DNA of 64,000 nucleotides from an uncultured Thermodesulfobacteriota bacterium (GCA_964501575.1 CAZCTP010000005.1:2446-66445); one strand, 5' to 3'. Positions 22,296 to 42,145 are shown, counted from the stretch's first letter. A program made the numbers and translations. Notes: generated from the sequence alone by a model not told the origin.

Positions 22296-22553
22296 ATGTC
22301 TGATAAATTAAAAGAAGCTTATGTATGCAAAACATGTGGTAAGATAGGAAAGATTGAACATTTATGTAATCCTGCTACTGAATTCAAACTTTTAAATGTT
22401 GAACCTTCTAATTGCCAATTCTGTGGAGAAAATATTAAAACTCCTTATCATATGTGTAAAGGTAAACTTCAGGAGGCAGAATATGTCTGTGGACAATGTG
22501 GAAGGATAGCACTCAATGAAGAGTGCCTCTGTGTACCAGAAAAAATAAATTAA
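22296..22553 (+). CDS. Small cysteine-rich protein (10 Cys, three CxxC), predicted metal-binding, internally duplicated
   Basis: Two copies of EAYVCxxCGxI(x6)LC.P (residues 7-26 and 60-81). SD AAGGAGGT. A rho-independent terminator follows. Confidence 0.6.
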   Translation: MSDKLKEAYVCKTCGKIGKIEHLCNPATEFKLLNVEPSNCQFCGENIKTPYHMCKGKLQEAEYVCGQCGRIALNEECLCVPEKIN

Positions 22554-22559
22554 AATCAA

Positions 22560-22586
22560 GGGAGAGGCTTCTCTCCCTTTTTGTTT
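22560..22586 (+). terminator. Rho-independent terminator
   Basis: GGGAGAG-gctt-CTCTCCC hairpin followed by TTTTTGTTT. Confidence 0.75.
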
Positions 22587-22798
22587 ATATTTACCTAATT
22601 ATTGTTTACTATTACTTACAAATAATTTTGTGTAGAAATTATTAACACTGTCATTATAAATAAAGATTTTATAATCCTGCAAATAGCTATCAATAGGTTT
22701 AAAAGAAATTGACAATTATTTATATTTTTGTTAAATATAAAATAAAATAGCTTCTTAATTTATTTTATATAAATATAATAAATATAGGGGGTGTGAAT

Positions 22799-24316
22799 AT
22801 GCAGGTAAATGTGGCTCAAATTAAAGAATTAATAACTGCCTATATACCCAATTTAATTGGAGCTATAGCTATTTTAATTTTGGGATGGTTAATTTCTTTA
22901 CTTGTTACTGCTATTGTCCGTGCGGGACTCAGGCATACAACCCTGGATAATAGACTGGCACGTTGGATTATGGGGGAAGAGGCTGCTAAGAAGATAGAGG
23001 TTGAAGAAGGAATTGCTAAAGGAATATTTTATTTACTTATGCTCTTTGTACTGGTTGCATTCTTCCAGGCTCTTGGACTTACCCTTATCACTGAACCTAT
23101 AAATAGATTTTTAACCAAACTCTTTCAATTTATCCCTCAATTATTAGGAGCTCTGATATTATTAATTATAGCGTGGTTCGTAGCAGGAACTCTAAGACTT
23201 ATCATTTCAAAGCTATTAAGCACAAGTAAGTTTGATGAGATTGTAGGAGAAAAGGTTGGAAGGGAAGAGAAGAAGCCTATCCCGTTGACAAAAACAATTG
23301 CTGATACTGTATACTGGCTGGTATTTCTGCTTTTCTTACCTGCGATATTAAGTACTTTGGCTCTGGAAGGTCTTCTTGAACCTATCAGAGAAATGGTCAA
23401 CAGAATCCTGACCTTTCTACCAAATATATTTGCAGCTGGTTTAATCCTTGGAGCAGGGTGGTTTGTTGCTCGTATTATTCAAAGAATTGTCACCAATCTA
23501 TTAACCGCTATTGGAACCGATAGATTGGGTGAGCAGGTAGGAATAGGGACAGTTTTGGGTACTGAAAGACTTTCTGGACTCCTTGGCTTCATAGTCTATA
23601 TTCTAATCCTTATTCCAGTACTTATTGCTTCTCTGAATGCATTAAAGCTTGAAGCGGTGACCAAACCAGCAAGCAATATGCTTAATATGATTCTTCAAGC
23701 CATTCCATCTATATTTGCTGCTGCTCTATTATTGACTATATCCTATATAATAGGACGTCTGGTGGCAAATTTAATCGCTACCCTACTTGCAAATGCTGGT
23801 TTTAATAAGATTATGGTCTGGCTGGGAATAGGAGAGGAGAGTTCAGAGGGAACAAAAACCCCTTCAAATATATTAGGCTATCTGGTTCTGGTTATAATTA
23901 TGCTTCTCGCTATAATTGAAGTTTTTCAGATTCTGGGATTTGGTGCTGCAGCTGATTTAATTAGTCAATTTATAATATTTATAAGTCATGTCATTTTAGG
24001 ATTGATTATATTCGGTATTGGATTATACTTAGCTAATCTTGCCTCCAAGACTATTCAGGCGAGCAGTACAACCCAGGCTAATCTGTTAGCCCTTGCAGCA
24101 CGTATCACCATTCTGATTTTTGCAGGAGCAATGGGTTTAAGACAGATGGGACTGGCAAATGAGATTATTAACTTAGCCTTTGGTTTACTGCTTGGAGCAA
24201 TAGCAATCGCAATAGCGATCGCTTTTGGATTAGGAGGTCAGAAGATAGCTGCTCAAGAATTGGATGAGTGGATTAAATCATTAAGATCAAAATCCAAGAA
24301 ATCACAAAGAAATTAA
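22799..24316 (+). CDS. Polytopic membrane protein built from tandem conserved-TM-helix (MscS N-terminal-type) repeats; no MscS channel domain
   Basis: Four to five repeats of about 95 aa, each with IP.L.GALILLIIAWFVAG.L..II..LL......G..VG. The ATG at 22799 lies 7 nt after GGGGG (the tabulated GTG at 22793 is less likely). 505 aa. Confidence 0.65.
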   Translation: MQVNVAQIKELITAYIPNLIGAIAILILGWLISLLVTAIVRAGLRHTTLDNRLARWIMGEEAAKKIEVEEGIAKGIFYLLMLFVLVAFFQALGLTLITEPINRFLTKLFQFIPQLLGALILLIIAWFVAGTLRLIISKLLSTSKFDEIVGEKVGREEKKPIPLTKTIADTVYWLVFLLFLPAILSTLALEGLLEPIREMVNRILTFLPNIFAAGLILGAGWFVARIIQRIVTNLLTAIGTDRLGEQVGIGTVLGTERLSGLLGFIVYILILIPVLIASLNALKLEAVTKPASNMLNMILQAIPSIFAAALLLTISYIIGRLVANLIATLLANAGFNKIMVWLGIGEESSEGTKTPSNILGYLVLVIIMLLAIIEVFQILGFGAAADLISQFIIFISHVILGLIIFGIGLYLANLASKTIQASSTTQANLLALAARITILIFAGAMGLRQMGLANEIINLAFGLLLGAIAIAIAIAFGLGGQKIAAQELDEWIKSLRSKSKKSQRN

Positions 24317-25179
24317 TCTCCCCTCTCAAAATGCTTTTTCAATACACTCATCATGAGTGGAAGGGGGGCTTTCTCCCCTGTCCATAATTCAAAGCTTAAT
24401 GCTCCTTGATAACAAAGCATTCCCAATCCATTAGCACACCGCAGTCCCAAGGACTTTGCCCTTAGAATAAATATAGGCTCTTCCGGATTATAAACAGTAT
24501 CAAATATAACTGAATCCCTGGATAAAACTTCCAGAGGAATAGAAAGTTCAACATTTATATTTTTCATACCTACAGGGGTGGCATTTATAAATATATCAGA
24601 TTCTCTTAAATACTCAGATATAACCCCATCTTCCAGAGGTATCGCAATAAATTCTGTTGATCTAAATATCTCTCTGTATTGATTTATGAGCTTTTTCCCC
24701 TTATCCAAGCTCCGATTTGCAACCACAATTCTCTTTGCTCCATCTTTTGCAAGGCTCACGAGGATAGCTCTTGCAGCTCCACCTGCTCCAAGCATAAATA
24801 TTCGTTTAGCAGAGGGAGAGATCCCAAGATCATTCTTTAGAGCATATAAGAAACCTAACCCATCGGTATTGGTCCCTATAAGCCTTCCCTGATTATTTAA
24901 GATAGTATTAACAGCTCCTATTAATCTTCCCTCTTCCTCTACTTCATCCAGATATTTAATAACTTCCTCTTTATGAGGAATGGTTACATTAATCCCTCTT
25001 ATATTTAACCCTTTCATTCCTTGAATTGCATCTCTTAAATCAGAAGGTTTTACTTCAAAGGGAAGGTAAATACAGTCTAAACCGAGGTACTCAAATGCAC
25101 TATTATGCATAAGGGGTGACAGGGTATGTTCTATTGGATATCCAAATATCCCAAAAATTTTTGTCTTTCCCGAAATCAT
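24313..25179 (-). CDS. aroE: Shikimate dehydrogenase
   Basis: Homology begins at MISGKTKIFGIFGYPIEHTLSPLMHN, and a GAGGAARA Rossmann motif is present. The tabulated upstream ATG at 25221 adds 14 residues with no counterpart in the family and would place a TGnTATAAT box inside the coding sequence. Confidence 0.75.
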   Translation of the reverse strand: MISGKTKIFGIFGYPIEHTLSPLMHNSAFEYLGLDCIYLPFEVKPSDLRDAIQGMKGLNIRGINVTIPHKEEVIKYLDEVEEEGRLIGAVNTILNNQGRLIGTNTDGLGFLYALKNDLGISPSAKRIFMLGAGGAARAILVSLAKDGAKRIVVANRSLDKGKKLINQYREIFRSTEFIAIPLEDGVISEYLRESDIFINATPVGMKNINVELSIPLEVLSRDSVIFDTVYNPEEPIFILRAKSLGLRCANGLGMLCYQGALSFELWTGEKAPLPLMMSVLKKHFERGD

Positions 25180-25191
25180 AAAATTATTTTT

Positions 25192-25200
25192 ATTATAGCA
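25192..25200 (-). promoter_or_regulatory. Extended -10 element (TGCTATAAT) 12 nt upstream of the aroE ATG; short-leader transcript suggested
   Basis: Read directly on the minus strand; no SD is present. Confidence 0.3.
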
Positions 25201-25275
25201 TATAAAAAATAATGCTTGCATGTAAACTACAAAAATTTTATATTATAAAAAGATTCTAAAAGGAGGTAATCTAAA

Positions 25276-26367
25276 TTGGCACGTAAAGGGAAAAGAGCGG
25301 TATTAGTAAAGCCAGATCAACCTATAGAAATATGGGAACTTCCGGTACCATTGCCCCAACCTGGAGGAGTATTGCTAAAGGTAGAAATGGGAGGAGTATG
25401 TGGTACCGATGTTCACCTGTGGCATGGTGATATGGAACTACCCTATCCTATTGTACTCGGGCATGAGGGAATAGGTATAATTGAAGAGTTTGGAGAAGGA
25501 TTAACCAAAGATTATGCTGGAACCCCCCTAAAAGTTGGGGACAGAGTTTATTGGGCCCCTATTAAACCTTGTTACCATTGTTATTACTGTACTGTAATAA
25601 AGGATTTTTCTCTATGTGAAGAGATGGTAATATTTGAACATGCAGAAAAACCTAACTGGGCAAGCTATAATGAGTATGCATGGCTTCCTGCAGGAATGCC
25701 ATTTTACAGAATCCCTGATGATACTCCCTCTGAATCTGTAATCGCCTTTGGATGTGCCATGCCTACTATGCTTCAGGGTCTGGAAAGATTAGGAGGAGTG
25801 GAACCCAATCAAACAGTTGTAATTCAGGGAGCTGGGCCAGTAGGACTTGCAGCTACCCTTCTTGCCAGACTTTCAGGAGCAAGGAAGATTATAAATATTG
25901 GGGCACCAAAACACAGGTTGGAGATGGCAATACGTTTTGGAGCAACTCATACAATCAATATAGACGAAATCCAAGGAGAAGAAAACAGGATTAAACGTTG
26001 TCATGAACTTACTGAAGGGATGGGAGCTGATGTGGTTATAGAGGCTGCAGGAGTGCTTGCCGCCTTTTCAGAAGGTCTTAAGATGCTTGCAAAAAATGGA
26101 AGATACCTTATAGTAGGATTATGGTCGGGTAAGGGAGCTATCCCTCTGGATCCAAGGTATATAAATAATAATAACCTTAAAGTTATAGGAACTGCCTTAG
26201 CCCAACCCCAGCATTATTACAGAGCAATTCAGTTGGCTCAGGCACATCATAAAGAATTTCCTATGGTTGAAATTGTTACCCATCGTTTCCCGATTGAAAA
26301 AAGTCAGGAGGCTCTTGAAGCGGTAGCTAAGCTCGAAACGGTTAAAGCAGTAATTATTCCTTCCTGA
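25276..26367 (+). CDS. Zinc-dependent alcohol dehydrogenase family (MDR)
   Basis: GHEGIG Zn motif, structural-Zn Cys cluster (CYHCYYC) and a GAGPVGL Rossmann fold. TTG start 8 nt after AAGGAGGT. Confidence 0.8.
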   Translation: MARKGKRAVLVKPDQPIEIWELPVPLPQPGGVLLKVEMGGVCGTDVHLWHGDMELPYPIVLGHEGIGIIEEFGEGLTKDYAGTPLKVGDRVYWAPIKPCYHCYYCTVIKDFSLCEEMVIFEHAEKPNWASYNEYAWLPAGMPFYRIPDDTPSESVIAFGCAMPTMLQGLERLGGVEPNQTVVIQGAGPVGLAATLLARLSGARKIINIGAPKHRLEMAIRFGATHTINIDEIQGEENRIKRCHELTEGMGADVVIEAAGVLAAFSEGLKMLAKNGRYLIVGLWSGKGAIPLDPRYINNNNLKVIGTALAQPQHYYRAIQLAQAHHKEFPMVEIVTHRFPIEKSQEALEAVAKLETVKAVIIPS

Positions 26368-26371
26368 ACTT

Positions 26372-26962
26372 TTATCTTAAATTTAATCTCTTTTTACAGA
26401 TGGGGCAAAAATCAGGCCCTTTTATATCAGTATCTCTGAGGGAATTTGAGAAATGCATTATACATCTCGGATTATTACAATGCCTGAGTCCATAGGTATG
26501 TCCCAGTTCATGGATTGCTTCCTTTAAAGTTCGTTCTAAGAATAATCTTCTATCAGCTTTAAAACTATAATATTCCTGACGAAGTCTTGTAAGAGATATA
26601 ATGCATATATTATTTCTAATATCTGCTTCTCCAAAGACAAAATTTAATCCGGTGACATATAGATCCCTATCTATGATACCCAATATTCTTTCAGCCTGCG
26701 TTTTGAATTTATCTAAACCCCTGAGTATCTTTGAGGAATAATACTGAGCTCTTTTCGAATTAAAGGCATATTCTGGGAGAGGCTCTGGACCAGAAATTTT
26801 TACTGAAAAATCAAAATATTTTTGAAGCTCTTTACCTAAGAAGTTAAGATTTTCTTTCTCAATTTTACCAAAGGGTACTATAAGTAAATTGTTTTGGGGT
26901 TTAGATTTTATGGACGTATTGAATAGAGATAAAAAAGAAAGGGATATTATTAAATACTTCAT
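26372..26962 (-). CDS. Archaemetzincin-like zinc metalloprotease with signal peptide
   Basis: HELGHTYGLRHCNNPRCIM (HExxHxxGxxHCx4CxM) together with an N-terminal signal sequence. Confidence 0.7.
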   Translation of the reverse strand: MKYLIISLSFLSLFNTSIKSKPQNNLLIVPFGKIEKENLNFLGKELQKYFDFSVKISGPEPLPEYAFNSKRAQYYSSKILRGLDKFKTQAERILGIIDRDLYVTGLNFVFGEADIRNNICIISLTRLRQEYYSFKADRRLFLERTLKEAIHELGHTYGLRHCNNPRCIMHFSNSLRDTDIKGPDFCPICKKRLNLR

Positions 26963-27369
26963 AGTTTTAATATACCATAAAAATTTAGCATGAAAAATAG
27001 AAAGAAAATTATAATAATTTAAAATTAAAATAAAATAATAAAATATTGATAAATTAAAGTTAGAATATTCCTATTATTGCTTTAAATGAGCTTTCTAATT
27101 TCATCAAAAGTTTATATAAAATTTCCCTGAGAATTGTCGAAGGAATAAATTCACAACAGTAAATATCTATTTTTTGAAATAGGAGATACAGAATGTGACA
27201 ACAAATTGTTTTATCAATTCATAATTTGTTCTTTATGTTATTCTGAATTAATAAATTTGTGAAATTTAAGAAATTACTGTTTTCGACAGAGCAGGGCGTT
27301 TCCGGTTATTCCCCAGAAAATGATTGATATTGGATGAAAAAATATTTAAAATAAAAAAGGAGGTGTATT

Positions 27370-27924
27370 ATGAAACCTACTGATCAATTAAAAGAAGAGC
27401 ATAAAGCAATAAAGTTGATGTTGGATATCTTGGAAAAGATTTATAGAAAGCTTGAAGCTGGAGAAGAAATAAATAAAGAGGATCTTGATAAAATTTTAGA
27501 GTTTACCAGTGTATTTATAAGCAAATGCCATCATGGGAAAGAAGAAGATTTACTTTTCCCAGCTATGGAAGAAGCAGGTGTTCCCAGGAAGGGAGGGCCA
27601 ATAGAAGTTATGATTGAAGAGCATGATATAGGTAGAGAATGTGTAAAAGCTTTGAATGGAGCTATTAAAAAATATAAAACAAATGATACAGAAGCTATAG
27701 ATGAAATAATTAAAAATGCCAGGAATTATGTTGGCCTTCTTAGGACACACATTGATAAAGAAGATAATATACTTTATTCAATGGCAGATGCACATCTTTC
27801 AAGAGAGAAGCAAGATAAGTTATTGAAGGAATTCGAAATTGTTGAAAACGAAAAGATTGGCATAGGGAAGCATGAAGAGTTTCATAAACTTTTACACCAT
27901 TTAAAAGATGTTTACTTAAAATGA
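27370..27924 (+). CDS. Hemerythrin-like HHE cation-binding domain protein
   Basis: Repeated H/E ligand motifs (H.E.....H, CHHGKEEDLLFP, HIDKEDN). SD AAGGAGGTG. Confidence 0.7.
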   Translation: MKPTDQLKEEHKAIKLMLDILEKIYRKLEAGEEINKEDLDKILEFTSVFISKCHHGKEEDLLFPAMEEAGVPRKGGPIEVMIEEHDIGRECVKALNGAIKKYKTNDTEAIDEIIKNARNYVGLLRTHIDKEDNILYSMADAHLSREKQDKLLKEFEIVENEKIGIGKHEEFHKLLHHLKDVYLK

Positions 27925-28189
27925 TTTATAATTAGCAAAATTACCTATCAGTTGATAAAATAGGAATTTATAAAAGGTTTAGAGGTAATTCCTTTATCTT
28001 TTTTCCCTCCCCTGAGTGTTTTTCTTTAAAACCTTAACCTCGGTTATCCTTTGGAAGAAGGGAAGTTAATTTAGGAACAAAAATTCTTTAATCCTTTCCA
28101 GGTAAAAAGGAAATATTTTGGGGGCTTTATGCCCCAATTGTCAAGAATTAATGAATTCACTATAAATTGCTGTTTGTTGGGATTAAAGT

Positions 28190-28218
28190 TTGACACGAAT
28201 TTCTTTTTAAAATAAAAT
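28190..28218 (+). promoter_or_regulatory. Candidate sigma70-type promoter (TTGACA-N17-TAAAAT)
   Basis: The hexamers were read directly, about 27 nt upstream of the ATG at 28245. Confidence 0.45.
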
Positions 28219-28244
28219 GTGTTATTAAATGGTGGTATAATTAA

Positions 28245-29189
28245 ATGAGACTTGCAAAGGAAAAAAAATCTACTTTATTCACAATTCTTCTTATAATTAT
28301 TATTACTTTCCTTTCCTGTGGCAAATATAGTGATGAAAAGGTAATAAATTTAGAAGAAAAGGAATCGATAAAAGAGGGGAGAAATGTTTCCAAAGATGAA
28401 TCTCTTCGTATTGCTGTAGGTGGGATGATTACACCAAGAGAGGGATTTTCTTACTACAAGAGACTTCTTGATTATATAGGTGAAAAATTAGGGAAATATG
28501 TTGATTTTGTTGATAGGGAGGATTATGCAGAGATTAATAGATTGCTGAAGTCAGGTAATATTGATGTAGCCTTTGTATGTGGTGGTCCTTATGTTGATGG
28601 TCATGAAGACTTTGGGCTTGAACTTCTTGTAGCTCCTGTTATAAATGGGAAGACTGTTTATTATTCATATATTATAGTGAATAGGAACAGTGATATAAAA
28701 GAAATTGAGGATCTTAGAGGGAAAATATTTGCCTTTACTGATCCACTTTCAAATACTGGGGAACTTGTTCCCACCTATATGCTTTCCAAGATGAATGAGA
28801 CTCCGGATACATTTTTTAAAAAGTGTGTTTTTACATACGCCCATGACAGGTCTATAGAAGCAGTTGCCCAGAAACTTGTGGATGGTGCTGCGGTTGATAG
28901 CCTGATATGGGAATATTTAAATAAGGTCAACCCCAAATTGACCTCAGAAACAAGAATAATAAAGAGATCACCCCCTTATGGGATTCCACCTGTAGTAGTA
29001 CGTCCTGACCTTGATCCTGAATTAAAGAAGAGGATTAAGGATATATTCCTTAATATACATAGAGATAAAGAGGGACAGAAGATATTAGAGGGAATGATGA
29101 TCGAGAAATTTGTTCAGATAGATGATAGTGCCTATGACTCTATAAGGGCGATGAAAAATTGGCTAAAAGAATCACTTCATGGTGAATAA
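28245..29189 (+). CDS. Periplasmic substrate-binding lipoprotein, PhnD/SsuA-like
   Basis: Lipobox-like FLSC, followed by similarity to the phosphonate-binding PBP fold (RIAVGGM...VDVAFVCGGPY). Confidence 0.65.
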   Translation: MRLAKEKKSTLFTILLIIIITFLSCGKYSDEKVINLEEKESIKEGRNVSKDESLRIAVGGMITPREGFSYYKRLLDYIGEKLGKYVDFVDREDYAEINRLLKSGNIDVAFVCGGPYVDGHEDFGLELLVAPVINGKTVYYSYIIVNRNSDIKEIEDLRGKIFAFTDPLSNTGELVPTYMLSKMNETPDTFFKKCVFTYAHDRSIEAVAQKLVDGAAVDSLIWEYLNKVNPKLTSETRIIKRSPPYGIPPVVVRPDLDPELKKRIKDIFLNIHRDKEGQKILEGMMIEKFVQIDDSAYDSIRAMKNWLKESLHGE

Positions 29190-32220: not shown

Positions 32221-32692
32221 GTTAACCCATTTTGATGATCAGGGAAGGTCAAAAATGGTGGATATTACGGATAAGGATATTACAAATAGAGAGGCTGTAG
32301 CTTCATGTTATGTAATTGTAAATCCTGATACATTTAGTCTTATAGTAAATAAAGAGATAGAGAAGGGAGACGTATTTGAAGTTGCAAGAATAGCCGGTAT
32401 AATGGGGGGTAAAAAGACAGGTGAACTTATTCCAATGTGTCATCCATTGAATATTACATCCATTGATATAAAGTTCTATCCTGTAAATGAGGAGAGCAAG
32501 ATAAAGGTGGAGTCTACAGTAAAAATAGTTGGTAGAACTGGGGTTGAGATGGAAGCCTTAATATCTGCTACTATAGCTGCACTTACAATATATGATATGT
32601 GTAAAGGGGTAGATAAAGGGATAACAATAACAGATATAAAGCTTATAAGTAAAAAGGGGGGTAAAAGCGGGGATTTCTTCAGGGAATCCTGA
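32213..32692 (+). CDS. moaC: Cyclic pyranopterin monophosphate synthase accessory protein
   Basis: 159 aa, all of which align to MoaC. It overlaps the ACAD stop. Confidence 0.85.
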
Positions 32693-33683
32693 GCTTCTGA
32701 TATTTTCTTACTGCCAGATTATGTTCTCTAAGATTAGTTGAATAATAATGGGTTCCATCGTTTTTTGAGACGAAATATAGATAGTTACTCTTAGCAGGAT
32801 ACAAAGCAGCAATTATTGATTCCTCTCCAGGGTTACAGATAGGTCCTATAGGAAGTCCATTAATAACATATGTATTAAAAGGAGTAGGCTTCTTTAAGTC
32901 TCTCTTCCTTATATTTCCATTAAAGTCTTTAAAAATCCCGTATATAACAGTTGGATCGCTCTGGAGTCTCATGCCTATCTTAAGCCTGTTGTGTAATACA
33001 GATGAAACCCTAAATTTTTCACTCATAAGGAAAGCTTCTTTTTCTATTATAGATGCTAAAATAATTATATCTTTTTTATTCATTCCTTTTCTCTTCTCTA
33101 TAGGATAATATTTCTTTAGATATATTTCATTGAAGTGCGAAACCATCTTTTTTATAATATCCTCTGGAGGGATTCCCTTTCTGAAATAATATGTATCAGG
33201 GAACAGATATCCTTCCACACTTATGCCATCAATTCCTAAGGAATGGATTAAATCTTTATTAAATGCTGCTTTAATAAATGACTTTGAATCACATATTCCA
33301 TCATTTTCAAGTAATTTTCCTATTTGATAGATATTATAACCCTCTGGAATTGTGACTCTGTGTTCTAAGCTTCTTCCTCTTTCCAATATATTTAACAATT
33401 CTCTTAATGGGGTTGATGTATAGAGCTCATATTCACCAGCCTTGATATTTACTTCATAGTATTTAGCAAGGAGTATAAAATTCCACTCATTTTTTATAAT
33501 TCCCTTAACTTTTAATATCTTTGCAATATCAGAAATATTTTCCCCTGGTGATATTAGTACAATTTTCTTTATATGAGGATTATTCACTGTTCTATATTTA
33601 TCGAAATAGAACAAGAGCAGTACAGATATTACAATAAGGATAGTACTCAGTATTAATATTACTCTTCGTATACTACTTTTCAC
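32679..33683 (-). CDS. mltG: Endolytic murein transglycosylase (YceG-like)
   Basis: N-terminal TM segment plus a YceG-like domain. 334 aa. It overlaps ruvX. Confidence 0.8.
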   Translation of the reverse strand: MKSSIRRVILILSTILIVISVLLLFYFDKYRTVNNPHIKKIVLISPGENISDIAKILKVKGIIKNEWNFILLAKYYEVNIKAGEYELYTSTPLRELLNILERGRSLEHRVTIPEGYNIYQIGKLLENDGICDSKSFIKAAFNKDLIHSLGIDGISVEGYLFPDTYYFRKGIPPEDIIKKMVSHFNEIYLKKYYPIEKRKGMNKKDIIILASIIEKEAFLMSEKFRVSSVLHNRLKIGMRLQSDPTVIYGIFKDFNGNIRKRDLKKPTPFNTYVINGLPIGPICNPGEESIIAALYPAKSNYLYFVSKNDGTHYYSTNLREHNLAVRKYQKLRIP

Positions 33684-34083
33684 CCCTTATACTATCTAAA
33701 TATCCTTGGAGAATAAATGTAGCTGCCAATTTATCCACAGTTTTCTTTCTCTTTTTTCTACTTACATTTCCATCTATAAGTACCCTACTTGCAGCCTTTG
33801 TAGAAAATCTTTCATCCCAGGTTGTTACGGGAACGTGGAGGAGGGCTTCTATCTCATTTATAAAAATTAAAACCTCCTCCACTTCCTTACCCATACTTCC
33901 ATCTTCTCTGATCGGAAGACCTACCACTATCTTTTTAACTTCCATCTCCTCTACAATATCTTTAAGTATTGATATATTCTCAGTTTCTATAACTTTTAAC
34001 CCATTGGCAATTATAGAATTCTCATCACTAATAGCAATACCTATCCTCTTTTTTCCAAAATCTAATCCTAAAATTCTTCCCAT
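33673..34083 (-). CDS. ruvX: Putative pre-16S rRNA nuclease / Holliday-junction resolvase YqgF
   Basis: N-terminal ILGLDFGKKRIGIAISD, an RNase H-like fold. 136 aa. Confidence 0.8.
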   Translation of the reverse strand: MGRILGLDFGKKRIGIAISDENSIIANGLKVIETENISILKDIVEEMEVKKIVVGLPIREDGSMGKEVEEVLIFINEIEALLHVPVTTWDERFSTKAASRVLIDGNVSRKKRKKTVDKLAATFILQGYLDSIRGEK

Positions 34084-34869
34084 CTATCTTCTGAATTTAG
34101 AGAAGTCAGGTTTTCTCTTTTCAAGAAATGCATTCTGTCCTTCTAGTGCCTCACCAGTCTTAAAATAATCCGGGGCTAACATCCTTTGATAGGAGAGAGG
34201 GTCATGTCGCATATAATCAAATTCACTCTCGAAGGTCGCTTTCAAAACTCTTAAACATGTGGGGCTCATAGAGAGTATCTCCTGGCACCATTTATCTACT
34301 TCTTCATCTAACTTCTCCATAGGTACAACAGCATTTACAAGCCCCATTTCAAGAGCTTCCTTTGCAGTATATCTCCTACACAAATACCACATCTCCCTTG
34401 CTTTTTTTGCTCCGATTACTCTTACAAGATAACTTACAATATATCCACCAGCAGGGCTTCCAACCCTTGGTCCGTTTTGACCAAATATAGCATGTTCCGC
34501 TGCAATGGTTAAATCACAATAGTATGCTACATGATTTCCCCATCCTATTGCATATCCATTAACTCTTGCAATAACAGGTTTTAGACAGTTTCTTATTGCA
34601 TTATGAATATCTATGTAATAGTCCCATATATCTGGAAAACCTTTATTTTTTTCCCAATTTATATCTCCTCCGGCACAGAATGCTTTATCTCCAGCTCCTG
34701 TCAGAACAACCACACCTATTGTTTTGTCATCGGTGGCATCATGAAATGCCTTTATCATCTCGAGCATTGTTTCATCCGTAACAGCATTCCGGACATGAGG
34801 ACGATTGATAGTTATTCTTGCAACTCCATCCTTCTTTTCATATATTATATCCTTAAAATCCAGTCCCAT
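34084..34869 (-). CDS. MenB/BadI-family crotonase (1,4-dihydroxy-2-naphthoyl-CoA synthase-like)
   Basis: High similarity to MenB over the whole length (LTGAGDKAFCAGGD, GYAIGWG, C-terminal KRKPDFSKF). Confidence 0.75.
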   Translation of the reverse strand: MGLDFKDIIYEKKDGVARITINRPHVRNAVTDETMLEMIKAFHDATDDKTIGVVVLTGAGDKAFCAGGDINWEKNKGFPDIWDYYIDIHNAIRNCLKPVIARVNGYAIGWGNHVAYYCDLTIAAEHAIFGQNGPRVGSPAGGYIVSYLVRVIGAKKAREMWYLCRRYTAKEALEMGLVNAVVPMEKLDEEVDKWCQEILSMSPTCLRVLKATFESEFDYMRHDPLSYQRMLAPDYFKTGEALEGQNAFLEKRKPDFSKFRR

Positions 34870-34880
34870 ATAAAACCTCC

Positions 34881-35219
34881 TTAAAAATATTTAACTATAT
34901 CATTCATTATATCAAAACCTGCTCCACCAGAAAATACTATACCCACTCCAATAGCCTCTTTTATCTCTTCCTTTTTTGCACCAAGCTCATAGGCAATCGG
35001 TATATAATAGGGGAATATGTTATTCAGCCTCATAGCAGTGGCTATGCTTAAAGCCATAAGAACCTTAGTCTTTCTATCCAGAGCTCCATCACCCATTAGT
35101 TTATTTCTCATAAGCAAATAACCTTCCAATATATCTGGAAACTTATCTGCAACTGGTCTAACCTTATCTGGTAGCGAATTTGATATTTCCTTGAGTATAT
35201 TTAGTATATTTTCATTCAT
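34881..35219 (-). CDS. Carboxymuconolactone decarboxylase (AhpD-like) family protein
   Basis: 112 aa with the CMD-domain pattern. It is contiguous with the UbiD stop. Confidence 0.55.
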   Translation of the reverse strand: MNENILNILKEISNSLPDKVRPVADKFPDILEGYLLMRNKLMGDGALDRKTKVLMALSIATAMRLNNIFPYYIPIAYELGAKKEEIKEAIGVGIVFSGGAGFDIMNDIVKYF

Positions 35220-36719
35220 TTAAATCCTCCTCTCAGCCATACTCTTAGCATATGGAGATTGCATTGCTCTTCCCTTATTTATCTCATTATCTGTGAACCA
35301 TCTTTTCAGGTCAACCTTTGGATGTTTCCCCAGTCTAAATTTCCATTTATTGGCATACGGGATCGTCGCATCAATTCCTATTACAGAGGCAAGTCCTATT
35401 CTACCTGGATCATCAGCTTTCTCTGTTGGAAAGTTGGCTGTTCCCCTTATATCATTCAATATCACGTAATCACTGGCTGGATCAGCTCTTGTCATTATAG
35501 CCCAAAGTACTTCCTCCGGATCATATATATTTACATCCTCATCCACTATAACAACCATTCTTAAACCGGCAAGTGCTGTAAATGCAGAAAGGATAATATT
35601 CTTCTGATATCCTTCGTCCCTCCTCCTCCTTTTCTTTACCTGGATTACTATTCCACCAAAGGATTTCATACCATCTAATATATGGGTATCTATAACAAGT
35701 CCAGGACATATTCTATTACCCACATCATACATAGATGCTTCCCTTAAGAAACTACATATATTGTTGCCATCGATAGAATGGGCAAGGGGAGTAAAGAATA
35801 TCGGGTCATCTCTATGGGTTATGGCTGTAGCTTGAAATTTATATGTTTTATAGGATTTTCCGAGATAGCCAGGATATTCCGGGAAGAAAGGGGCCTTTCC
35901 AATCTCCCCCAATTTTTTTGCCTCCTCACTTTCCCATACCGTCTCCTTTGTATCAACATACCCTTCAATAACCCATTCGGCACAGGCAAGTGCATAGGCA
36001 TCAACTGTTTTAGCATTGACTATCTCAACAGGAGTTCCCTGAAGCGCACCAGCTATACCCAATTCATTACATCCAACAGGTACTGAAATCTTCATTCCGC
36101 CACCACCTGCTGCAATCCATATTGCGGGAGATGTACATATATTTATTGTTAATGGTAGTCTGCCTTTATTATCTGCAGTCCTTAATACATGATGCTCAAA
36201 ATGGGTATTAAGATTTATTGATAGACTTGACCAATCTTTACCCTGAAAGTGGGCTCTATTAAATGATATATGAAAGCCGCTTTCAGGGTTTCCTACCAAG
36301 GTATTCCCTCCTCCTAAAATTCTTCCTGCATCCTCTTCAGTATGTTTTATTATAGGTAGTGTAGCAAGAACATCTATACCCTTTGTAATAACATTCTTCT
36401 GGGACGGAGCGCTGTCCACAACTGTTGGATTTAGGGGATTCTTCATTGCATCAAGACACTTAAATTTGAATTTTCTATGGTCATCAATATCAAATATCCT
36501 TGCTACTCTTTCTCTCTTAGCACATATATTTGTTGTTATTTTATGTCCAGGATATCCCTTTATATTCTCAAACAGAAGGGCTGGCCCCCCATCAAATGCC
36601 TTTGCAATACCAGATACTTCATATATTGGATCAACTTCATTCTTCACAACAAATATATCACCGATATCTTTTAAGTATTCAATTGTAGACCTTGTACTTG
36701 TAATATCTTTCTTAGCCAT
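35220..36719 (-). CDS. UbiD-family (prFMN-dependent) reversible decarboxylase
   Basis: 499 aa aligning across the full UbiD fold. Confidence 0.8.
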   Translation of the reverse strand: MAKKDITSTRSTIEYLKDIGDIFVVKNEVDPIYEVSGIAKAFDGGPALLFENIKGYPGHKITTNICAKRERVARIFDIDDHRKFKFKCLDAMKNPLNPTVVDSAPSQKNVITKGIDVLATLPIIKHTEEDAGRILGGGNTLVGNPESGFHISFNRAHFQGKDWSSLSINLNTHFEHHVLRTADNKGRLPLTINICTSPAIWIAAGGGGMKISVPVGCNELGIAGALQGTPVEIVNAKTVDAYALACAEWVIEGYVDTKETVWESEEAKKLGEIGKAPFFPEYPGYLGKSYKTYKFQATAITHRDDPIFFTPLAHSIDGNNICSFLREASMYDVGNRICPGLVIDTHILDGMKSFGGIVIQVKKRRRRDEGYQKNIILSAFTALAGLRMVVIVDEDVNIYDPEEVLWAIMTRADPASDYVILNDIRGTANFPTEKADDPGRIGLASVIGIDATIPYANKWKFRLGKHPKVDLKRWFTDNEINKGRAMQSPYAKSMAERRI

Positions 36720-36740
36720 ATTTGTTCCTCCTTCAATAAG

Positions 36741-37076
36741 TTATACTTCAAAAGCCAAATTTTTAAACCCTTTCTGGCAGTCTCTATCCAGAGATCCACC
36801 AGCAACTCCAGGAATAAATGATATTGTGTCATTATCCTTTAATATTCTATTTAACATTTCTTCAGAATTTGCAGATATACCATTAAGAAGTATAGAGATT
36901 CCAGGAATCCCTGTTTTTGGATTTATAATAATACTTCTCTTAAATTCTTCCCCGTATTTCTTGATAATAATATCTATAAATTCTCTCAAGTTAACCTCTT
37001 TATTAAGAGTAAAAATTTCCACCTCCTTTCCTATTATATTCTTAAGACTCAGATAATATTTAACTTCAACTTTCAT
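36741..37076 (-). CDS. MoaD/ThiS-like small protein with a 17-aa tail after Gly-Gly
   Basis: ...FIPGVAGG followed by SLDRDCQKGFKNLAFEV. It overlaps the upstream AOR by 11 nt. Confidence 0.5.
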   Translation of the reverse strand: MKVEVKYYLSLKNIIGKEVEIFTLNKEVNLREFIDIIIKKYGEEFKRSIIINPKTGIPGISILLNGISANSEEMLNRILKDNDTISFIPGVAGGSLDRDCQKGFKNLAFEV

Positions 37077-38928
37077 ATAAATCGTTTATTAAATCATCAA
37101 GTTCCAGTTCTATAAGCTTATCTTTTGATGGCTTCGCATTTTCAATGTTCCAATCCATTGCAATAAGATATTCTTTAATCTGGGTATCAAGGTCTACTGT
37201 AACGTCTTTGTTTGGACCATCTGGCTGTGGGGGACTTCCTGTTACTCTACCTGGAACCCTGAATTTTAAAGGATTTATTCCCTCTCTTATATTAAAGGCT
37301 TGAAGCATATTTGCAATCCTTTCACCCCTTTTTAAAGCTTCCTCCATGCTTATATTCCATCCTGTAACAGAGCTCAGGAATTTAGGAACTATCGTAGTAT
37401 CAAAGAGGAATTGACCAAACATGCATAGTCCTGATGAACTTAATATATGCATATAATTGCTTAATTTTTTATGATTTTCAGCCTTTCCTGAATAACTGTA
37501 CTTATCATGGGGTTTAATATCTATACCCTTTGGTTCAACCCCTTCAGCCCAATGAGCTCCACCTCTGGTATGTCTTGCTGGGGTTGGGTCCATCTTATAT
37601 GTCGTTGCTATTCCAGGAAGATGTTTGGGGTCTCTCATAGGAACTTCCTGGCCAGCTATATGGATAGCAAATTCTTCTGAACCATTACCAATTTTTTCTG
37701 AAGCCTTCTTTACCCCATCAGCAAGAACATCTCCAAATCCTTCTCTTTTAGCCAATTTTTCTGTCATTTTCACAATGGATTCATGATTCCCCCATCTTAG
37801 TTCTATTTCATCAGTGTCATTAAGGGTTATTATCCCGTTTTCAAAGCATTCAATTGCGAAGGCTATTGTAACTCCTGCTGATATGGTATCAATACCATAT
37901 CTATTACATATATCATTTGCTTTTATTATTGATTCCACATTATCATTGAGGCACATATTACCAAATGCAGCAAGGGTCTCATGTTCGGGTTTCTTCGCAT
38001 CGTCTAATTGATAACCGCCCTCTTTAACAGATACAATTCCTCCGCATGCCACCGGACATCTATAACATGCATACTTCCTTTTTAGGTATTTGATAACATT
38101 AGAATCCGATATTAGCTCCGGGTTAGGGAAATCTACTGGGGCTATTCCTCCATAATTTTTAACCGGGGTTTCTCCAGCCTTTGTCCATACAGCTGTAACC
38201 CCGCATGTTCCAAAATTCCTGAAAACATCAACAAGATGTCCTTTAAATCCTTCAAGAAACTCCTTCCTTAAATTTTCTGTATCCTCTTTATTAGCTATCT
38301 TAATCTCCATATCTCCCTTTGCAGCAATAGCTTTAAGCCTTTTTGAACCCATTATGGCTCCAAGCCCAGATCTTGCTGCAGCTCTTCCTTTATTTGACAT
38401 AATAGCCGATATTAATGATAATTCCTCACCTGATTGTCCAATACACGCAACCTCTGTCTTTTCGCCGTGTCTATTTTTTATTATCTCTTCTGTTTCAAAT
38501 GTATCCTTACCCCATAGATCTGATGCATCCCTCACTTCGGCCTTACCATTCTCTATATATAGATATACTGGTTTATCCGAAATACCACTGAATAAGACCC
38601 CATCATAACCTGATCGCTTTAATGCAACTCCAAAGTATCCACCACTATTTGCATCTCCCCATGTTCCTGTGAGTGGAGACTTTCCAATAGCTGTAAATCT
38701 TGAACCAGTTAATGCGGGAGTTCCGGTTAATGGCCCAGTCATTATACCAAAGTAGCTCTCAGCACTTAGTGGAGAAACTTTTGCCTTCTGTCTACTATAT
38801 ATTAGTCTACATCCAAGCCCATAACCTCCTATAAATTTATTACATATTTCCTCATTTAACTCTTCTTCTTTTACTCTTCTATTGGAAAGATCCACATTAA
38901 GAATCTTTCCCATGTATCCACCTTTCAT
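37066..38928 (-). CDS. aor: Tungsten-type aldehyde:ferredoxin oxidoreductase (second AOR paralog)
   Basis: 620 aa with the AOR Cys motif CYRCPVAC. SD AAGGAGGA. Confidence 0.85.
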   Translation of the reverse strand: MKGGYMGKILNVDLSNRRVKEEELNEEICNKFIGGYGLGCRLIYSRQKAKVSPLSAESYFGIMTGPLTGTPALTGSRFTAIGKSPLTGTWGDANSGGYFGVALKRSGYDGVLFSGISDKPVYLYIENGKAEVRDASDLWGKDTFETEEIIKNRHGEKTEVACIGQSGEELSLISAIMSNKGRAAARSGLGAIMGSKRLKAIAAKGDMEIKIANKEDTENLRKEFLEGFKGHLVDVFRNFGTCGVTAVWTKAGETPVKNYGGIAPVDFPNPELISDSNVIKYLKRKYACYRCPVACGGIVSVKEGGYQLDDAKKPEHETLAAFGNMCLNDNVESIIKANDICNRYGIDTISAGVTIAFAIECFENGIITLNDTDEIELRWGNHESIVKMTEKLAKREGFGDVLADGVKKASEKIGNGSEEFAIHIAGQEVPMRDPKHLPGIATTYKMDPTPARHTRGGAHWAEGVEPKGIDIKPHDKYSYSGKAENHKKLSNYMHILSSSGLCMFGQFLFDTTIVPKFLSSVTGWNISMEEALKRGERIANMLQAFNIREGINPLKFRVPGRVTGSPPQPDGPNKDVTVDLDTQIKEYLIAMDWNIENAKPSKDKLIELELDDLINDLYES

Positions 38929-39141: not shown

Positions 39142-39927
39142 TCATATATCCACCACTTCATTAACAATATTGACAGGGGTCCCTATATAAAACCTCTTCC
39201 TACTTATAATAGGAATTTTTATCCTGTTGAGATCTACTATTGCTTCAGCCATTTTGATCCCTGTAATCATCGGGTCTACAATTGGCACTCCATCTATCTC
39301 AAATATACCCATCTTTGTCAACATAGGTGATAGCAGACCACATCCTGCTATTATAACATCAGCACCATCATCAATACAGGAATAGGCAACTTCTTCGAAG
39401 CTTTCTATAGCAAGCTTATAATCACCTACTACACACCCAAAGAATTCCTGAGAAGAAAGTCTAATAGATCTTACAGGATTATTTGCAATTACCTGCTTTT
39501 CCATCCTATATTTATGAATATTTTCCTCAATTTCTCCTATATAGTTAGGATCAGATGTCACAATAGCAAATCTTTTACCTAAGATAGAGGCAAAATGCAT
39601 TGATGATTCAGCAATTCCAATAACAGGTATGTTCATTAGTTGACGGAGTGCAAAGAGGGATGGGTCAAAGAAACATGTTATTACAAGGGCATCATATCCT
39701 TCCTTCTCACTTTTTAAAGCATTCTTAAGTATATCTCTGTCATTTAAGAATCTCAATCCTGGAAAGGATATAAACTCAGGATTTAAACCCCTATCCAGAG
39801 CCTTTATTACTATCTCAGTATCGGGCCTTTTTACCATATTATGGCATTCCTTAACTGTGTTTATATAGGGCTTAAATATCTTTGATTCAAGATCCATTTT
39901 TGCTGGAAGCTGACACCATATTCTCAT
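39142..39927 (-). CDS. Asp/Glu/hydantoin racemase family protein
   Basis: Pattern ALVITCFFDPSL...IPVIGIAESS, resembling hydantoin racemase / arylmalonate decarboxylase family members. The ATG lies 5 nt after GGAGG, which is embedded in the ACAD 3' end. Confidence 0.55.
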   Translation of the reverse strand: MRIWCQLPAKMDLESKIFKPYINTVKECHNMVKRPDTEIVIKALDRGLNPEFISFPGLRFLNDRDILKNALKSEKEGYDALVITCFFDPSLFALRQLMNIPVIGIAESSMHFASILGKRFAIVTSDPNYIGEIEENIHKYRMEKQVIANNPVRSIRLSSQEFFGCVVGDYKLAIESFEEVAYSCIDDGADVIIAGCGLLSPMLTKMGIFEIDGVPIVDPMITGIKMAEAIVDLNRIKIPIISRKRFYIGTPVNIVNEVVDI

Positions 39928-41097
39928 TTATGCCTCCATTAACATTCCTAATCTTAATATTTGGTTTGTTCCGTCATATATCTGAAGTATTTTTGCATCC
40001 CTCATATACTTTTCTACCGGATATTCCTTCATATATCCGTAACCGCCGAGAATCTGGACAGCATTTGATGTTATCTCCATAGCAACATCTCCACCAAAAA
40101 CCTTTGCCATACTTGCAAGGGGAATATCTGGATAGGGATGATTATCATAATACCAGCATGCTTTATATACAAGGTTTCTTGCTGCCTCAATCTTCATCTT
40201 CATATCTGCAAGCATAAGTGCAACAGCCTGATGGTTTATAATAGGTTGTTTCCATGTAATTCTCTGTTTTGCATACTCAAGGGCAGTTTCATAAGCAGCT
40301 CTTGCTAATCCAACAGCCATTGCACCGGTTCCAGGCCCAGTTATGCATAACACATCAGGGACCATAACAGCCCCTCTTCCTTCTTCGCCTAACATATTTT
40401 CTTTTGATACTTGAACATTATCCATTATTAGCTCTGTATTTGACATAAGTCTCTGCCCCATCTTGTCTTCAACCTTACCAATGGAGAATCCGGGAGTTCC
40501 TTCTTCTAAGAAGAATATTGTCGCAGTCTCCATAAGAGGTTTGCTCAGGTCATTTCTTGTAAGTATTCCATATAGCTTTGAAACCCCACCATTTGTAATA
40601 AAACATTTCGTTCCATTTAAGATATAATGATCTCCATCTCTTTTACAGGTAGCTTTTGGCCCTATCTCGGGATCAGGAAATGGACAAAATAGGTCTGAAC
40701 CACTATGGGGTTCTGTTGCAGCAAATGCAAATAATCCTTTATTTGCGAGGGGAAGCCATTTTTCTTTCTGTTCTTCTGTTCCATACTTTGCTATACACCA
40801 TGCTGATGCCGCACTGACACAGAAAGATTCTCCCATGCCAGCATCAGCAGCCCCAATCTCTTCAATAACAATAGCTAAGTCAAGAACTTTGCCTCCTCCT
40901 CCCCCATACTTTTCTGGAACAAGCAAGGAATTAAATCCTAAGTCTAACCATTTTTGAACAATATCCTTTGGATAACAATCCTTTGGGTCTTGCTTTCTGT
41001 CATATTCTGGAGCAGCAGGCTTTATTTCATTCTGAGCAAATCTCCTCGCTGTTTCCTGAAGACGCTTTTGGTCTTCTGTTAATCTAAAATCTATCAT
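39928..41097 (-). CDS. Acyl-CoA dehydrogenase
   Basis: 389 aa; ACAD domains span the protein. Confidence 0.8.
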   Translation of the reverse strand: MIDFRLTEDQKRLQETARRFAQNEIKPAAPEYDRKQDPKDCYPKDIVQKWLDLGFNSLLVPEKYGGGGGKVLDLAIVIEEIGAADAGMGESFCVSAASAWCIAKYGTEEQKEKWLPLANKGLFAFAATEPHSGSDLFCPFPDPEIGPKATCKRDGDHYILNGTKCFITNGGVSKLYGILTRNDLSKPLMETATIFFLEEGTPGFSIGKVEDKMGQRLMSNTELIMDNVQVSKENMLGEEGRGAVMVPDVLCITGPGTGAMAVGLARAAYETALEYAKQRITWKQPIINHQAVALMLADMKMKIEAARNLVYKACWYYDNHPYPDIPLASMAKVFGGDVAMEITSNAVQILGGYGYMKEYPVEKYMRDAKILQIYDGTNQILRLGMLMEA

Positions 41098-41113: not shown

Positions 41114-42145
41114 TTAGTAGTTTACTTTCCCCACATAGAACTCCTCATCGGGTTCCCTTGGGGTTATGCCTATAGCCCTTAAGGAAGCTCTATATCTCTC
41201 TTTAATATGTTCATATAGCCTGTGAACAGGAAGTCTAAGGGGACCACCATTGAATCCCACAAGCCATCCCATATATTTCCATTCGGGGTAATGGTAAGTG
41301 CCTTGAAGAAGGGTTGGGTACAATCTTTCCATCCATATAGCCCTTGCTGGTTGAAGCTGCCAATATAATTCCATCCCTTTGTTCATATCTCCCTTCTGCA
41401 TCAGATTAAAATATTGGGTAAGTCTTGGATTGTCCGGAGTCTGGAGATATTCATAGGGCCCGGCCCCCGCCCACTGCATTCCATATTTCTCAATCCATAT
41501 TGGCCAATTTGCCTCCGAGGGATCCTGAACCAATATCTTATGTCCGTACAGCCTCTGAGCTTCAGCAAACCCGGCTACACTAAGTGTTCCATACTTCATA
41601 CCAACTACATTTTCAATATCAGCCATTTGGTTAAGAAGCTGGGGCGGAAAAGCACTTGGATGAAATCTCTCAAAATTATATTTATGTGATGGGTATAGAT
41701 TTATTGCAAGGTCTGTAGAATTACATATTCTTTCTGTGAAATCATATATTTCTTTTTCACTCTTTGGATAAAAATAGGGAGGATAACCAAGTAATGCTGA
41801 GTCGCATCCACAACCTTCTGCGTATTTTACCATCTCAAGTGTATCCTCAAAGGAATTAAAGCTCAACCATAGAGATATGAATATTTTACCCTTTGCTTCA
41901 TCTACTGCTATCTCCATAAATTTTTTCATTTCTTCTTTCGTTGTTCCTGCATCTGGAACAAGAAGGGTTGAGAAGAATCCATGTTTTATACATTCTTTTA
42001 CATCGTGTCTGATTCCTTTTTCATCCAAGTTTCTGAGATCAGGAGTGAAGGATGGAAATAAGCAATTTTCAATTCCCTTAAAATTTTCTTTGGCCCATTC
42101 CTTTGCTTCTGATTTTCTATATTTCATATTTCCTCCTTTTTTCAT
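41114..42145 (-). CDS. DapA/NAL-family class I aldolase-like protein (dihydrodipicolinate synthase family)
   Basis: GTT(K)EE, AEGCGCDSALL..P.Y and VVGMKYG (putative Schiff-base Lys) align with the DapA family. The ATG at 42127 is an alternative start. Confidence 0.5.
   Translation of the reverse strand: MKKGGNMKYRKSEAKEWAKENFKGIENCLFPSFTPDLRNLDEKGIRHDVKECIKHGFFSTLLVPDAGTTKEEMKKFMEIAVDEAKGKIFISLWLSFNSFEDTLEMVKYAEGCGCDSALLGYPPYFYPKSEKEIYDFTERICNSTDLAINLYPSHKYNFERFHPSAFPPQLLNQMADIENVVGMKYGTLSVAGFAEAQRLYGHKILVQDPSEANWPIWIEKYGMQWAGAGPYEYLQTPDNPRLTQYFNLMQKGDMNKGMELYWQLQPARAIWMERLYPTLLQGTYHYPEWKYMGWLVGFNGGPLRLPVHRLYEHIKERYRASLRAIGITPREPDEEFYVGKVNY

Follow-up and report, generated by a model that had tools for sequence, protein, structure and literature searches.

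The window analysed here, a stretch of 64,000 nt from an uncultured Thermodesulfobacteriota bacterium, carries on its minus strand, between positions 34,084 and 38,928, a string of five genes encoding an aldehyde oxidoreductase of the AOR family, a MoaD-like protein, a UbiD-type decarboxylase (UbiD1), a protein of the carboxymuconolactone decarboxylase (CMD) family and a crotonase (ECH); a second UbiD gene (UbiD2) lies elsewhere in the window. Open reading frames (ORFs) were taken from a six-frame list and identified by Pfam and NCBIfam scans. Our own Pfam scans covered the window ORFs on either side of 17150-29189, while the ORFs within this part and the flanks of the window were covered by precomputed Pfam labels of the called genes at positions 34-83089 of the source contig (84 kb; JGI metagenome 3300038380, Ga0434945_000127). 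Near-identical UbiD2 proteins carry Syntrophales names, and the organism was placed there by those names. An earlier note, made from the sequence alone, had described the five genes as a packed run continuing into ruvX-mltG and had interpreted them as a candidate module for carboxylation and reduction. The layout and the five family assignments were confirmed by the ORFs and by the domain and model scans, which gave the following genes:

37066-38928, minus strand: AOR_A, 620 aa, with AFOR_N and AFOR_C domains, both full length
36741-37076, minus strand: MoaD_A, a MoaD/ThiS-like protein of 111 aa, TIGR01687 (moaD_arch)
35220-36719, minus strand: UbiD1, 499 aa, with all three UbiD domains
34881-35219, minus strand: CMD/AhpD-like protein, 112 aa, Pfam CMD
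34084-34869, minus strand: MenB/BadI-type crotonase (ECH), 261 aa, of a BadI/MenB-like subfamily
33673-34083, minus strand: ruvX, a housekeeping gene at the 3' end of the same tight run (Pfam/NCBIfam)
32679-33683, minus strand: mltG, likewise a housekeeping gene at the 3' end of the run (Pfam/NCBIfam)

The spacing along the order AOR, MoaD, UbiD1, CMD, ECH, RuvX, MltG is -11, 21, 0, 11, 0 and -11 bp, the CMD start codon standing directly after the UbiD1 stop, and a Shine-Dalgarno sequence (AAGGAGG) is present upstream of AOR_A. Such tight spacing is normal in this window, where 25 of the 41 same-strand neighbour pairs are at most 25 bp apart (median 9 bp) and the tight pairs include unrelated genes such as GroEL-IleRS-LspA; adjacency alone is therefore weak evidence. 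Promoter and terminator scans of the region from 32 to 43 kb gave counts not above those in shuffled sequence and yielded no operon boundaries, and no promoter or terminator above background was found within the seven genes from AOR to mltG. A Moco/Tuco riboswitch or another RNA element 5' of the AOR gene was considered and rejected, since Rfam at gathering thresholds returned a single tRNA for the whole window.

The AFOR_N and AFOR_C domains of AOR_A score 248 and 352 bits, and the translation shows a CxxCxxxC motif. The best matches in the PDB are the AOR 9g7j (368 bits) and that of P. furiosus, 1aor (365 bits), followed by FOR (263 bits) and BamB 4z3w (203 bits). Judged by these matches, AOR_A belongs to the AOR clade proper, of the single-subunit archaeal type, and is closer to AORs than to FOR, GAPOR or BamB. 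The designation as a tungsten-dependent AOR in the earlier note thus holds for the family, while the metal, W or Mo, cannot be read from the sequence. No Fer4 or FAD subunit adjoins AOR_A. The combination of an AOR gene with a MoaD-like gene is present a second time in the window, in a unit with no UbiD nearby:

11082-13785, plus strand: second AOR unit, consisting of a 4Fe-4S protein, AOR_B and MoaD-like_B (13477-13785), identified by Pfam and NCBIfam

The paralogues are 33% (AOR_A and AOR_B) and 36% (MoaD_A and MoaD-like_B) identical, and both MoaD-like proteins match TIGR01687 with 51.6 bits (cut-off 49.5). Each MoaD-like gene overlaps its AOR gene, the overlap of MoaD_A with the AOR_A stop being 11 bp. 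Strictly adjacent AOR and MoaD genes form a conserved neighbourhood, which has been read as dedicated cofactor synthesis (PMC1779556), and the AOR operon aorABCDE of Aromatoleum aromaticum ends in two MoaD-like genes, aorD and aorE (PMC6365974). The window resembles these AOR-linked MoaD systems (Iyer, Burroughs and Aravind 2006; aorABCDE) in that an AOR gene is followed by a MoaD-family gene, here twice. It differs from aorABCDE in that counterparts of AorA (Fe-S) and AorC (FAD) are missing beside AOR_A, while AOR_B is accompanied by a Fer4 protein, and from the AOR-linked MoaD systems in that both MoaD-like proteins continue beyond the VAGG sequence, by 17 residues in MoaD_A and by 3 in MoaD-like_B. 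A free C-terminal Gly-Gly for thiocarboxylation would thus need proteolytic processing, and no JAMM protease was seen near either AOR-linked MoaD-like gene. Because the pairing is published and a UbiD-free copy of it exists at 11082-13785, we regard the AOR and its MoaD-like protein as a unit of its own.

The second AOR unit is itself embedded in a series of overlapping, co-directional genes on the plus strand (6450-16590), encoding a short-chain dehydrogenase/reductase (SDR), a CrtO-like FAD oxidoreductase, a molybdenum subunit of the xanthine dehydrogenase (XDH) family, the 4Fe-4S protein, AOR_B, MoaD-like_B, a DUF1329/LolA-like protein and a second FAD oxidoreductase. The closest model for the XDH-family subunit is 4-hydroxybenzoyl-CoA reductase alpha (677 bits, cut-off 995), and neither an FAD nor a 2Fe-2S subunit adjoins it. 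A molybdenum hydroxylase beside an AOR is an unusual pairing.

UbiD1 matches the Pfam domains UbiD_N, UbiD and UbiD_C with 57, 115 and 76 bits, all above the cut-offs and at full length. Its best match in the PDB is phthaloyl-CoA decarboxylase (Pcd) of Thauera chlorobenzoica (PDB 8oz5/8pmk; 278 bits to 8oz5, full length), followed by HmfF with 176 bits, and models of phenylphosphate carboxylase give 52-72 bits, far below their cut-offs. The likeness to Pcd extends to the active site. The catalytic set R155, E263 and E281 is present, and the ligands H150, H173 and E219 are as in Pcd, with a His where the canonical enzymes have an Asn ligand (H-I-S-F-N-R; Pcd has the same H-x-x-x-N-R). The two acidic residues are 18 positions apart as in Pcd and not 5 apart as in the canonical enzymes; this distance is 17-18 across 119 homologues, all of which (119/119) keep the Arg and both Glu. 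By sequence, UbiD1 is nevertheless not an orthologue of Pcd but a member of a sister sub-branch, because it is 33% identical to Pcd, compared with 48-49% for the Pcd-proper group from Acidobacteria and Chloroflexota (L009, L010, L013, L014). Its nearest relative outside its own genus is 63% identical, and the copy on contig L106 is 90.5% identical over the part covered.

The surroundings of UbiD1 relatives were assessed in 17 loci, of which 12 came from a scan of a genome collection with UbiD1 and five from contig look-ups. CoA-related enzymes recur among the neighbours: in L010 and L013, two genes for family-III CoA-transferases directly follow a UbiD1-family gene (45% identical), CoA_trans A/B stands beside one in L004/L005, AMP-ligases adjoin others in L001 (with hydantoinase-like genes) and L017, and L008 has a thiolase-like protein and DUF35. 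Of these loci, L001 and L004/L005 represent the sub-branch of UbiD1 itself, as does the metagenomic locus L099 (HGD-D/BcrAD, two crotonases and an SDR); the neighbours within this sub-branch are variable but mostly linked to CoA. Pterin (Mo/W) oxidoreductases also occur nearby: L002 and L016 have an XDH-like enzyme, L004 and L017 a molybdopterin enzyme, and L014 an AOR. The placement in the Pcd branch, whose namesake is a thioester-specific enzyme, and the CoA-transferase and CoA-ligase neighbours of the relatives together suggest that UbiD1 is probably a decarboxylase of a carboxylated CoA thioester that uses prenylated flavin mononucleotide (prFMN). The product would then likely be a CoA ester and not a free acid that the AOR could reduce; AORs are not known to act on thioesters. 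The setting of UbiD1 differs from that of Pcd. Phthalate clusters consist of the family-III CoA-transferase SptAB, Pcd and UbiX, and a CoA-transferase or CoA-ligase together with UbiX is said to occur in all known ones (PMC13040137), whereas UbiD1 is adjoined by none of CoA-transferase, CoA-ligase and UbiX and has the CMD-fold protein, the BadI-like crotonase and the AOR as neighbours instead. Among the relatives' loci, L017 (Chloroflexi metagenome-assembled genome (MAG) JACPSA010000010.1, around 6200-19100) combines a UbiX, two AMP-ligases and a molybdopterin oxidoreductase with four UbiD paralogues, of which one is a frameshifted UbiD1-type.

The crotonase resembles MenB, with about half of the aligned residues identical (estimated by eye from a printed alignment), and lies in the same sub-branch; it scores 284 bits against G. 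kaustophilus MenB. It stays below the cut-offs of both MenB models (PRK07396, 311.6 vs 380; TIGR01929, 285.9 vs 342.7) and of the BadI model (TIGR03210, 289.9 vs 467.6 bits). The catalytic residues Asp163, Tyr97 and Tyr258 of MenB (E. coli numbering) are replaced by Ala, Phe and Phe, and Arg91 by Glu. These replacements are consistent across the subfamily, with Ala at the Asp163 position in 117 of the 120 best homologues. Among the features in common with MenB, G86, G156, S161, F270 and K273 are conserved. By these sequence features, the crotonase represents a distinct and widespread BadI/MenB-like subfamily that is not MenB, and we know of no characterised member. Its relatives were examined in 80 loci from a metagenome scan with the crotonase, where an SDR was a neighbour in 30 and an acyl-CoA dehydrogenase (ACAD) in 11; a second crotonase, an OYE-type reductase, a zinc-dependent alcohol dehydrogenase (Zn-ADH) and CoA-activating enzymes were found beside relatives as well. 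The frequent SDR neighbours recall the badH-badI pair of 2-ketocyclohexanecarboxyl-CoA hydrolase (BadI). In the window itself, ACADs lie at 31075 and 39928 and no SDR adjoins the crotonase. The neighbours of the family would fit the predicted role of a BadI-like hydrolase of a beta-oxoacyl-CoA, possibly a ring compound.

The CMD-like protein matches Pfam CMD with 40.4 bits (cut-off 23) and, in the PDB, best the AhpD protein 5dik (39.5 bits). Neither this protein nor its 91% identical relative contains a cysteine, so it cannot be a peroxidase of the CxxC AhpD type.

In agreement with the earlier note, no UbiX gene adjoins either UbiD. A match to PF02441 was absent from the Pfam-scanned window ORFs and from the precomputed labels of the 84 kb contig, and a tblastn search of the window with E. 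coli UbiX as query yielded no match with an E value under 3.5. UbiX was met only in the unrelated Chloroflexi locus L017, and presumably it is encoded elsewhere in the genome of our organism, as is common.

The arrangement of the string is not conserved beyond close relatives. None of the 17 UbiD1-family loci contains ECH, CMD or MoaD, and the AOR in one of them (L014) is divergently oriented and paired with a molybdate transporter. Likewise, CMD, MoaD and RuvX are absent from all 80 crotonase-family loci, two of which have a non-adjacent AOR and one a UbiD1-family gene (L099). The order UbiD1-CMD-ECH-RuvX is kept in L106, an ENA contig with 85% nucleotide identity to window positions 33859-35915, and CMD-ECH-RuvX-MltG in L019, a MAG fragment; as both are congeners, this retention carries little weight. 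Between L106 and the window, the proteins UbiD1, CMD and ECH are 90-94% identical and RuvX 73%. The only independent support for a link between UbiD1 and ECH in the 17 and 80 loci comes from L099 (44-8502, groundwater-type metagenome). This co-directional cluster encodes an HGD-D component, a BcrAD/BadFG ATPase, a crotonase of the ECH subfamily with a GSPAGG motif, a second crotonase, an SDR, a radical SAM protein, a PNPOx-like flavoprotein, a 103-aa orphan and a UbiD1-family decarboxylase (59% identical). The 103-aa protein, which lies 5' of the UbiD1 homologue, was considered as a CMD or MoaD-like protein and discarded, as it has no similarity to either.

On its 5' side, the string is divided by a 213-bp AT-rich gap from three further genes:

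39142-39927, minus strand: hydantoin/Asp-Glu-racemase-like protein (Pfam)
39928-41097, minus strand: ACAD (Pfam/NCBIfam)
41114-42145, minus strand: DHDPS-like aldolase-fold protein (Pfam/NCBIfam)

The racemase-like protein keeps both catalytic-type Cys motifs (VITCFFDP and IIAGCGLL) and has no NCBIfam match; its gene stands in an operon with the ACAD and the divergent DHDPS-fold protein.

With moderate confidence, we interpret the string as a composite of two units, the AOR-MoaD pair and a set of CoA-ester enzymes, which are packed together in a compact Syntrophales-type genome and probably co-transcribed with ruvX-mltG. In the first unit, the AOR would interconvert aldehydes and free acids using ferredoxin, and the MoaD-like protein, of the sulfur-carrier type, would serve the synthesis of its pterin (W or Mo) cofactor. 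In the second unit, UbiD1 would take the carboxyl group off a carboxylated aryl-, alkenyl- or alicyclic-CoA thioester, and the crotonase would hydrolyse a beta-oxoacyl-CoA, resulting in retro-Claisen cleavage of a ring or chain. The ACADs on either side may supply or consume enoyl-CoA intermediates, and the cysteine-less CMD-fold protein may be an accessory. Any metabolic link between the two units is something that we could only infer. Several points weigh against this interpretation. The thioester specificity is extrapolated to UbiD1 from an enzyme of a different sub-branch to which it is only 33% identical, and neither a CoA-ligase nor a CoA-transferase that could provide the CoA ester was found in the Pfam-scanned window parts or among the contig labels. 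The second unit may itself be a product of chance, given that the UbiD1 and ECH families occur together in one of the 80 ECH loci and in none of the 17 UbiD1 loci. Finally, the lack of an internal promoter or terminator above background makes co-expression of the AOR and UbiD1 likely, which leaves room for a functional link between them.

One alternative, which we regard as unlikely, is that the string forms a single catabolic operon whose five genes all serve the same family of substrates. The AOR would oxidise an aromatic or alicyclic (carboxy)aldehyde to the acid, an enzyme encoded elsewhere would activate it with CoA, and decarboxylation by UbiD1, beta-oxidation steps and BadI-like ring opening would follow; the three proteins encoded upstream (racemase-like, ACAD and aldolase-fold) may join in, and the compound feeding the route could be, for example, phthalate-like or cyclohexane-dicarboxylate-like. 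The operon-like spacing with internal terminators not above background speaks for this alternative, as do the recurrence of pterin oxidoreductases near UbiD1-family genes (L002, L016, L004, L017, L014), the cluster in L099 that ties the UbiD1 and ECH families together, and the higher conservation of UbiD1, CMD and ECH than of RuvX in L106. However, the AOR is paired with UbiD1 only here, the AOR of L014 being divergent and beside its molybdate transporter, and the pterin enzymes come from three unrelated families, so that their recurrence may reflect gene-rich anaerobic catabolic islands. In addition, no CoA-activating gene was found in the parts covered, and unrelated genes are tightly joined all over the window. 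We see a small chance for the opposite alternative: AOR-MoaD, UbiD1, CMD and ECH would be unrelated, with UbiD1 and ECH in different pathways, and brought together by pure coincidence in a streamlined genome. The close spacing of 25 of the 41 same-strand pairs, unrelated housekeeping genes included, is in line with coincidence, and so are the presence of ruvX-mltG in the run and the near absence of shared neighbours in the loci of the relatives (ECH and CMD in 0/17 UbiD1-family loci; CMD in 0/80 and a UbiD1-family gene in 1/80 ECH loci). Against it, UbiD1 and ECH both come from families of CoA-ester enzymes, L099 independently joins these families in one co-directional cluster, and the gene order is kept in L106.

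The carboxylation-reduction module proposed in the earlier note, a counterpart of cascades of UbiD with carboxylic acid reductase, is very unlikely. Here UbiD1 would convert an aromatic or unsaturated compound to a free acid by carboxylation, and reduction of the acid to the aldehyde by the AOR would pull this unfavourable reaction. AORs are reversible, and only the small MoaD-like gene separates the AOR gene from that of UbiD1, with which it is probably co-transcribed. Yet UbiD1 falls into the thioester-specific Pcd branch and far from the phenylphosphate carboxylases (52-72 bits), its relatives are tied to CoA-activating enzymes, and AOR-MoaD is an independent conserved unit. Moreover, the adjacency of AOR and UbiD1 is not conserved in the 17 and 80 loci, and the earlier note had stated beforehand that a neighbourhood without conservation would speak against a functional connection. 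The Zn-ADH at 25276, which the note saw as fitting an acid-reducing route, is encoded on the other strand in an unrelated context, at a distance of about 7.7 kb from the closer end of the string and 12.6 kb from the AOR gene. The other alternative raised there, menaquinone biosynthesis by the futalosine pathway with UbiD as MqnL, here extended to the crotonase as MenB, is extremely improbable. The resemblance is at the level of the families only, as in the 284 bits of the crotonase to G. kaustophilus MenB. The MqnL equivalog model TIGR03701 (cut-off 495.9) gives 108.8 bits for UbiD1 and 226.3 bits for UbiD2, the crotonase fails to reach either MenB cut-off and has none of the D163, Y97 and Y258 residues, and no other men or mqn gene was found in the Pfam-scanned window parts or in the precomputed labels that cover the remainder of the 84 kb. 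The identities MqnL and MenB were therefore ruled out by the curated cut-offs together with the replaced catalytic residues of the crotonase.

Taken as a whole, the earlier interpretation is partly supported, in that the flavour of an anaerobic aromatic or alicyclic CoA-ester metabolism holds. The string should be annotated neither as menaquinone biosynthesis nor as a module that fixes CO2 by carboxylation and reduction. Its families are known ones, arranged in a way specific to the lineage, and what is uncharacterised in it is the Pcd-like UbiD sub-branch and the BadI/MenB-like crotonase subfamily. Both are candidates for the anaerobic breakdown of aromatic, alicyclic or plasticiser-type acids in syntrophs.

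The most unusual feature found here is a coupled rearrangement in the second UbiD protein, which stands by itself, with a GNAT gene in divergent and an MFS transporter gene in convergent orientation beside it, confirming its isolated position as described in the earlier note:

52126-53604, plus strand: UbiD2, second UbiD, TIGR00148 (315.3 bits, cut-off 244.85)

In alignments to 7pda, VdcC and HudA, UbiD2 has Asn160 at the position of the catalytic Arg and Arg271 at that of the acid-base Glu. Compared with Fdc1 and the canonical Glu-Arg-Glu site of UbiD enzymes, it keeps the fold, the prFMN and metal ligands N155, H179 and E220 and the first Glu (E266), but the equivalents of Arg173 and Glu282 of Fdc1 are Asn160 and Arg271. 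The canonical Glu-Arg-Glu/Asp network is thus not found in the UbiD2 sequence. Among the 150 best 50%-cluster representatives from a library of 1.84 billion proteins, 146 have the Arg, 146 have Glu or Asp, and none has both changes of UbiD2. Within its own 90% cluster (34 sequences, some of which bear the names of Syntrophales MAGs), all 12 full-length members carry N and R. The same holds at the level of the 90% clusters, where 11, i.e. the UbiD2 cluster and ten further ones with 51-86% identity, are all N and R, whereas the 107 others are all R and E. A sequencing error as the cause was ruled out, because 12 independent cluster members and ten further clusters carry the substitutions. In a neighbour-joining tree, the N/R sequences form one monophyletic group. 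As judged from these alignments and this tree, UbiD2 belongs to a monophyletic Syntrophales subfamily in which the changes from Arg to Asn and from Glu to Arg always occur together.

Activity of Fdc1 is retained only after Glu-to-Asp changes, and its R173K variant is inactive (PMC5818171). We neither know of a published description of the coupled Arg/Glu swap nor met one in literature searches, which were not targeted at this substitution. With the catalytic Arg moved, the canonical acid-base Glu lost and the cofactor ligands kept, the active site of UbiD2 may employ a different proton donor, or the protein may catalyse a non-decarboxylating reaction or have a function in cofactor handling. 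We tentatively suggest, as a possibility short of an expectation, that UbiD2 represents an undescribed Syntrophales subfamily with a re-wired prFMN active site and an altered chemistry or role and that, in parallel, UbiD1, CMD and ECH are part of a new route of thioester decarboxylation and ring opening for a dicarboxylated aromatic or alicyclic compound. Since UbiD enzymes are held to require the Glu-Arg-Glu network for both catalysis and cofactor maturation, the UbiD2 lineage makes it possible to test directly to what extent prFMN chemistry relies on this network, and in this respect the lineage matters more for enzymology than the string does.

The genomic contexts of the N/R-type UbiD proteins differ by member. 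In L024/L025 (459-4840), UbiD2 orthologues (86%) are immediately followed by the TRAP transporter genes DctQ, DctM and DctP, a ferredoxin and a fumarate-reductase-like flavoprotein. As a TRAP transporter there and an MFS transporter here adjoin UbiD2, the neighbourhoods suggest that its substrate may be an imported carboxylate. A different setting was observed in L107/L108 (1-9470), where an N/R-type UbiD (P0419, 54% identical to UbiD2) is divergent from genes for YceI, MMPL, a ketoacyl synthase, two U32 proteins and a B12 radical SAM protein. YceI is a polyisoprenoid-binding protein, and the U32 peptidase family is that of UbiU and UbiV, which hints at a quinone or isoprenoid-lipid context. 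UbiD2-like paralogues beside UbiD1 homologues (L004, L006, L016, L017) were considered as partner subunits; they have the canonical R and E, are about 30% identical to UbiD2 and are not its orthologues.

Two further observations concern other parts of the contig. In a single ORF of 576 aa on the plus strand (49542-51272), Memo and AMMECR1 are fused with each other and with a DUF6599 segment. This contig has an unusually high density of enzymes that use Mo or W and of genes for their cofactors (moaC, moeA), and a pterin enzyme set just past the 3' end of the window adds to it (L021, 835-5260), comprising a 4Fe-4S protein, an NrfD/DmsC membrane subunit, a small ORF and a molybdopterin oxidoreductase of 849 aa.

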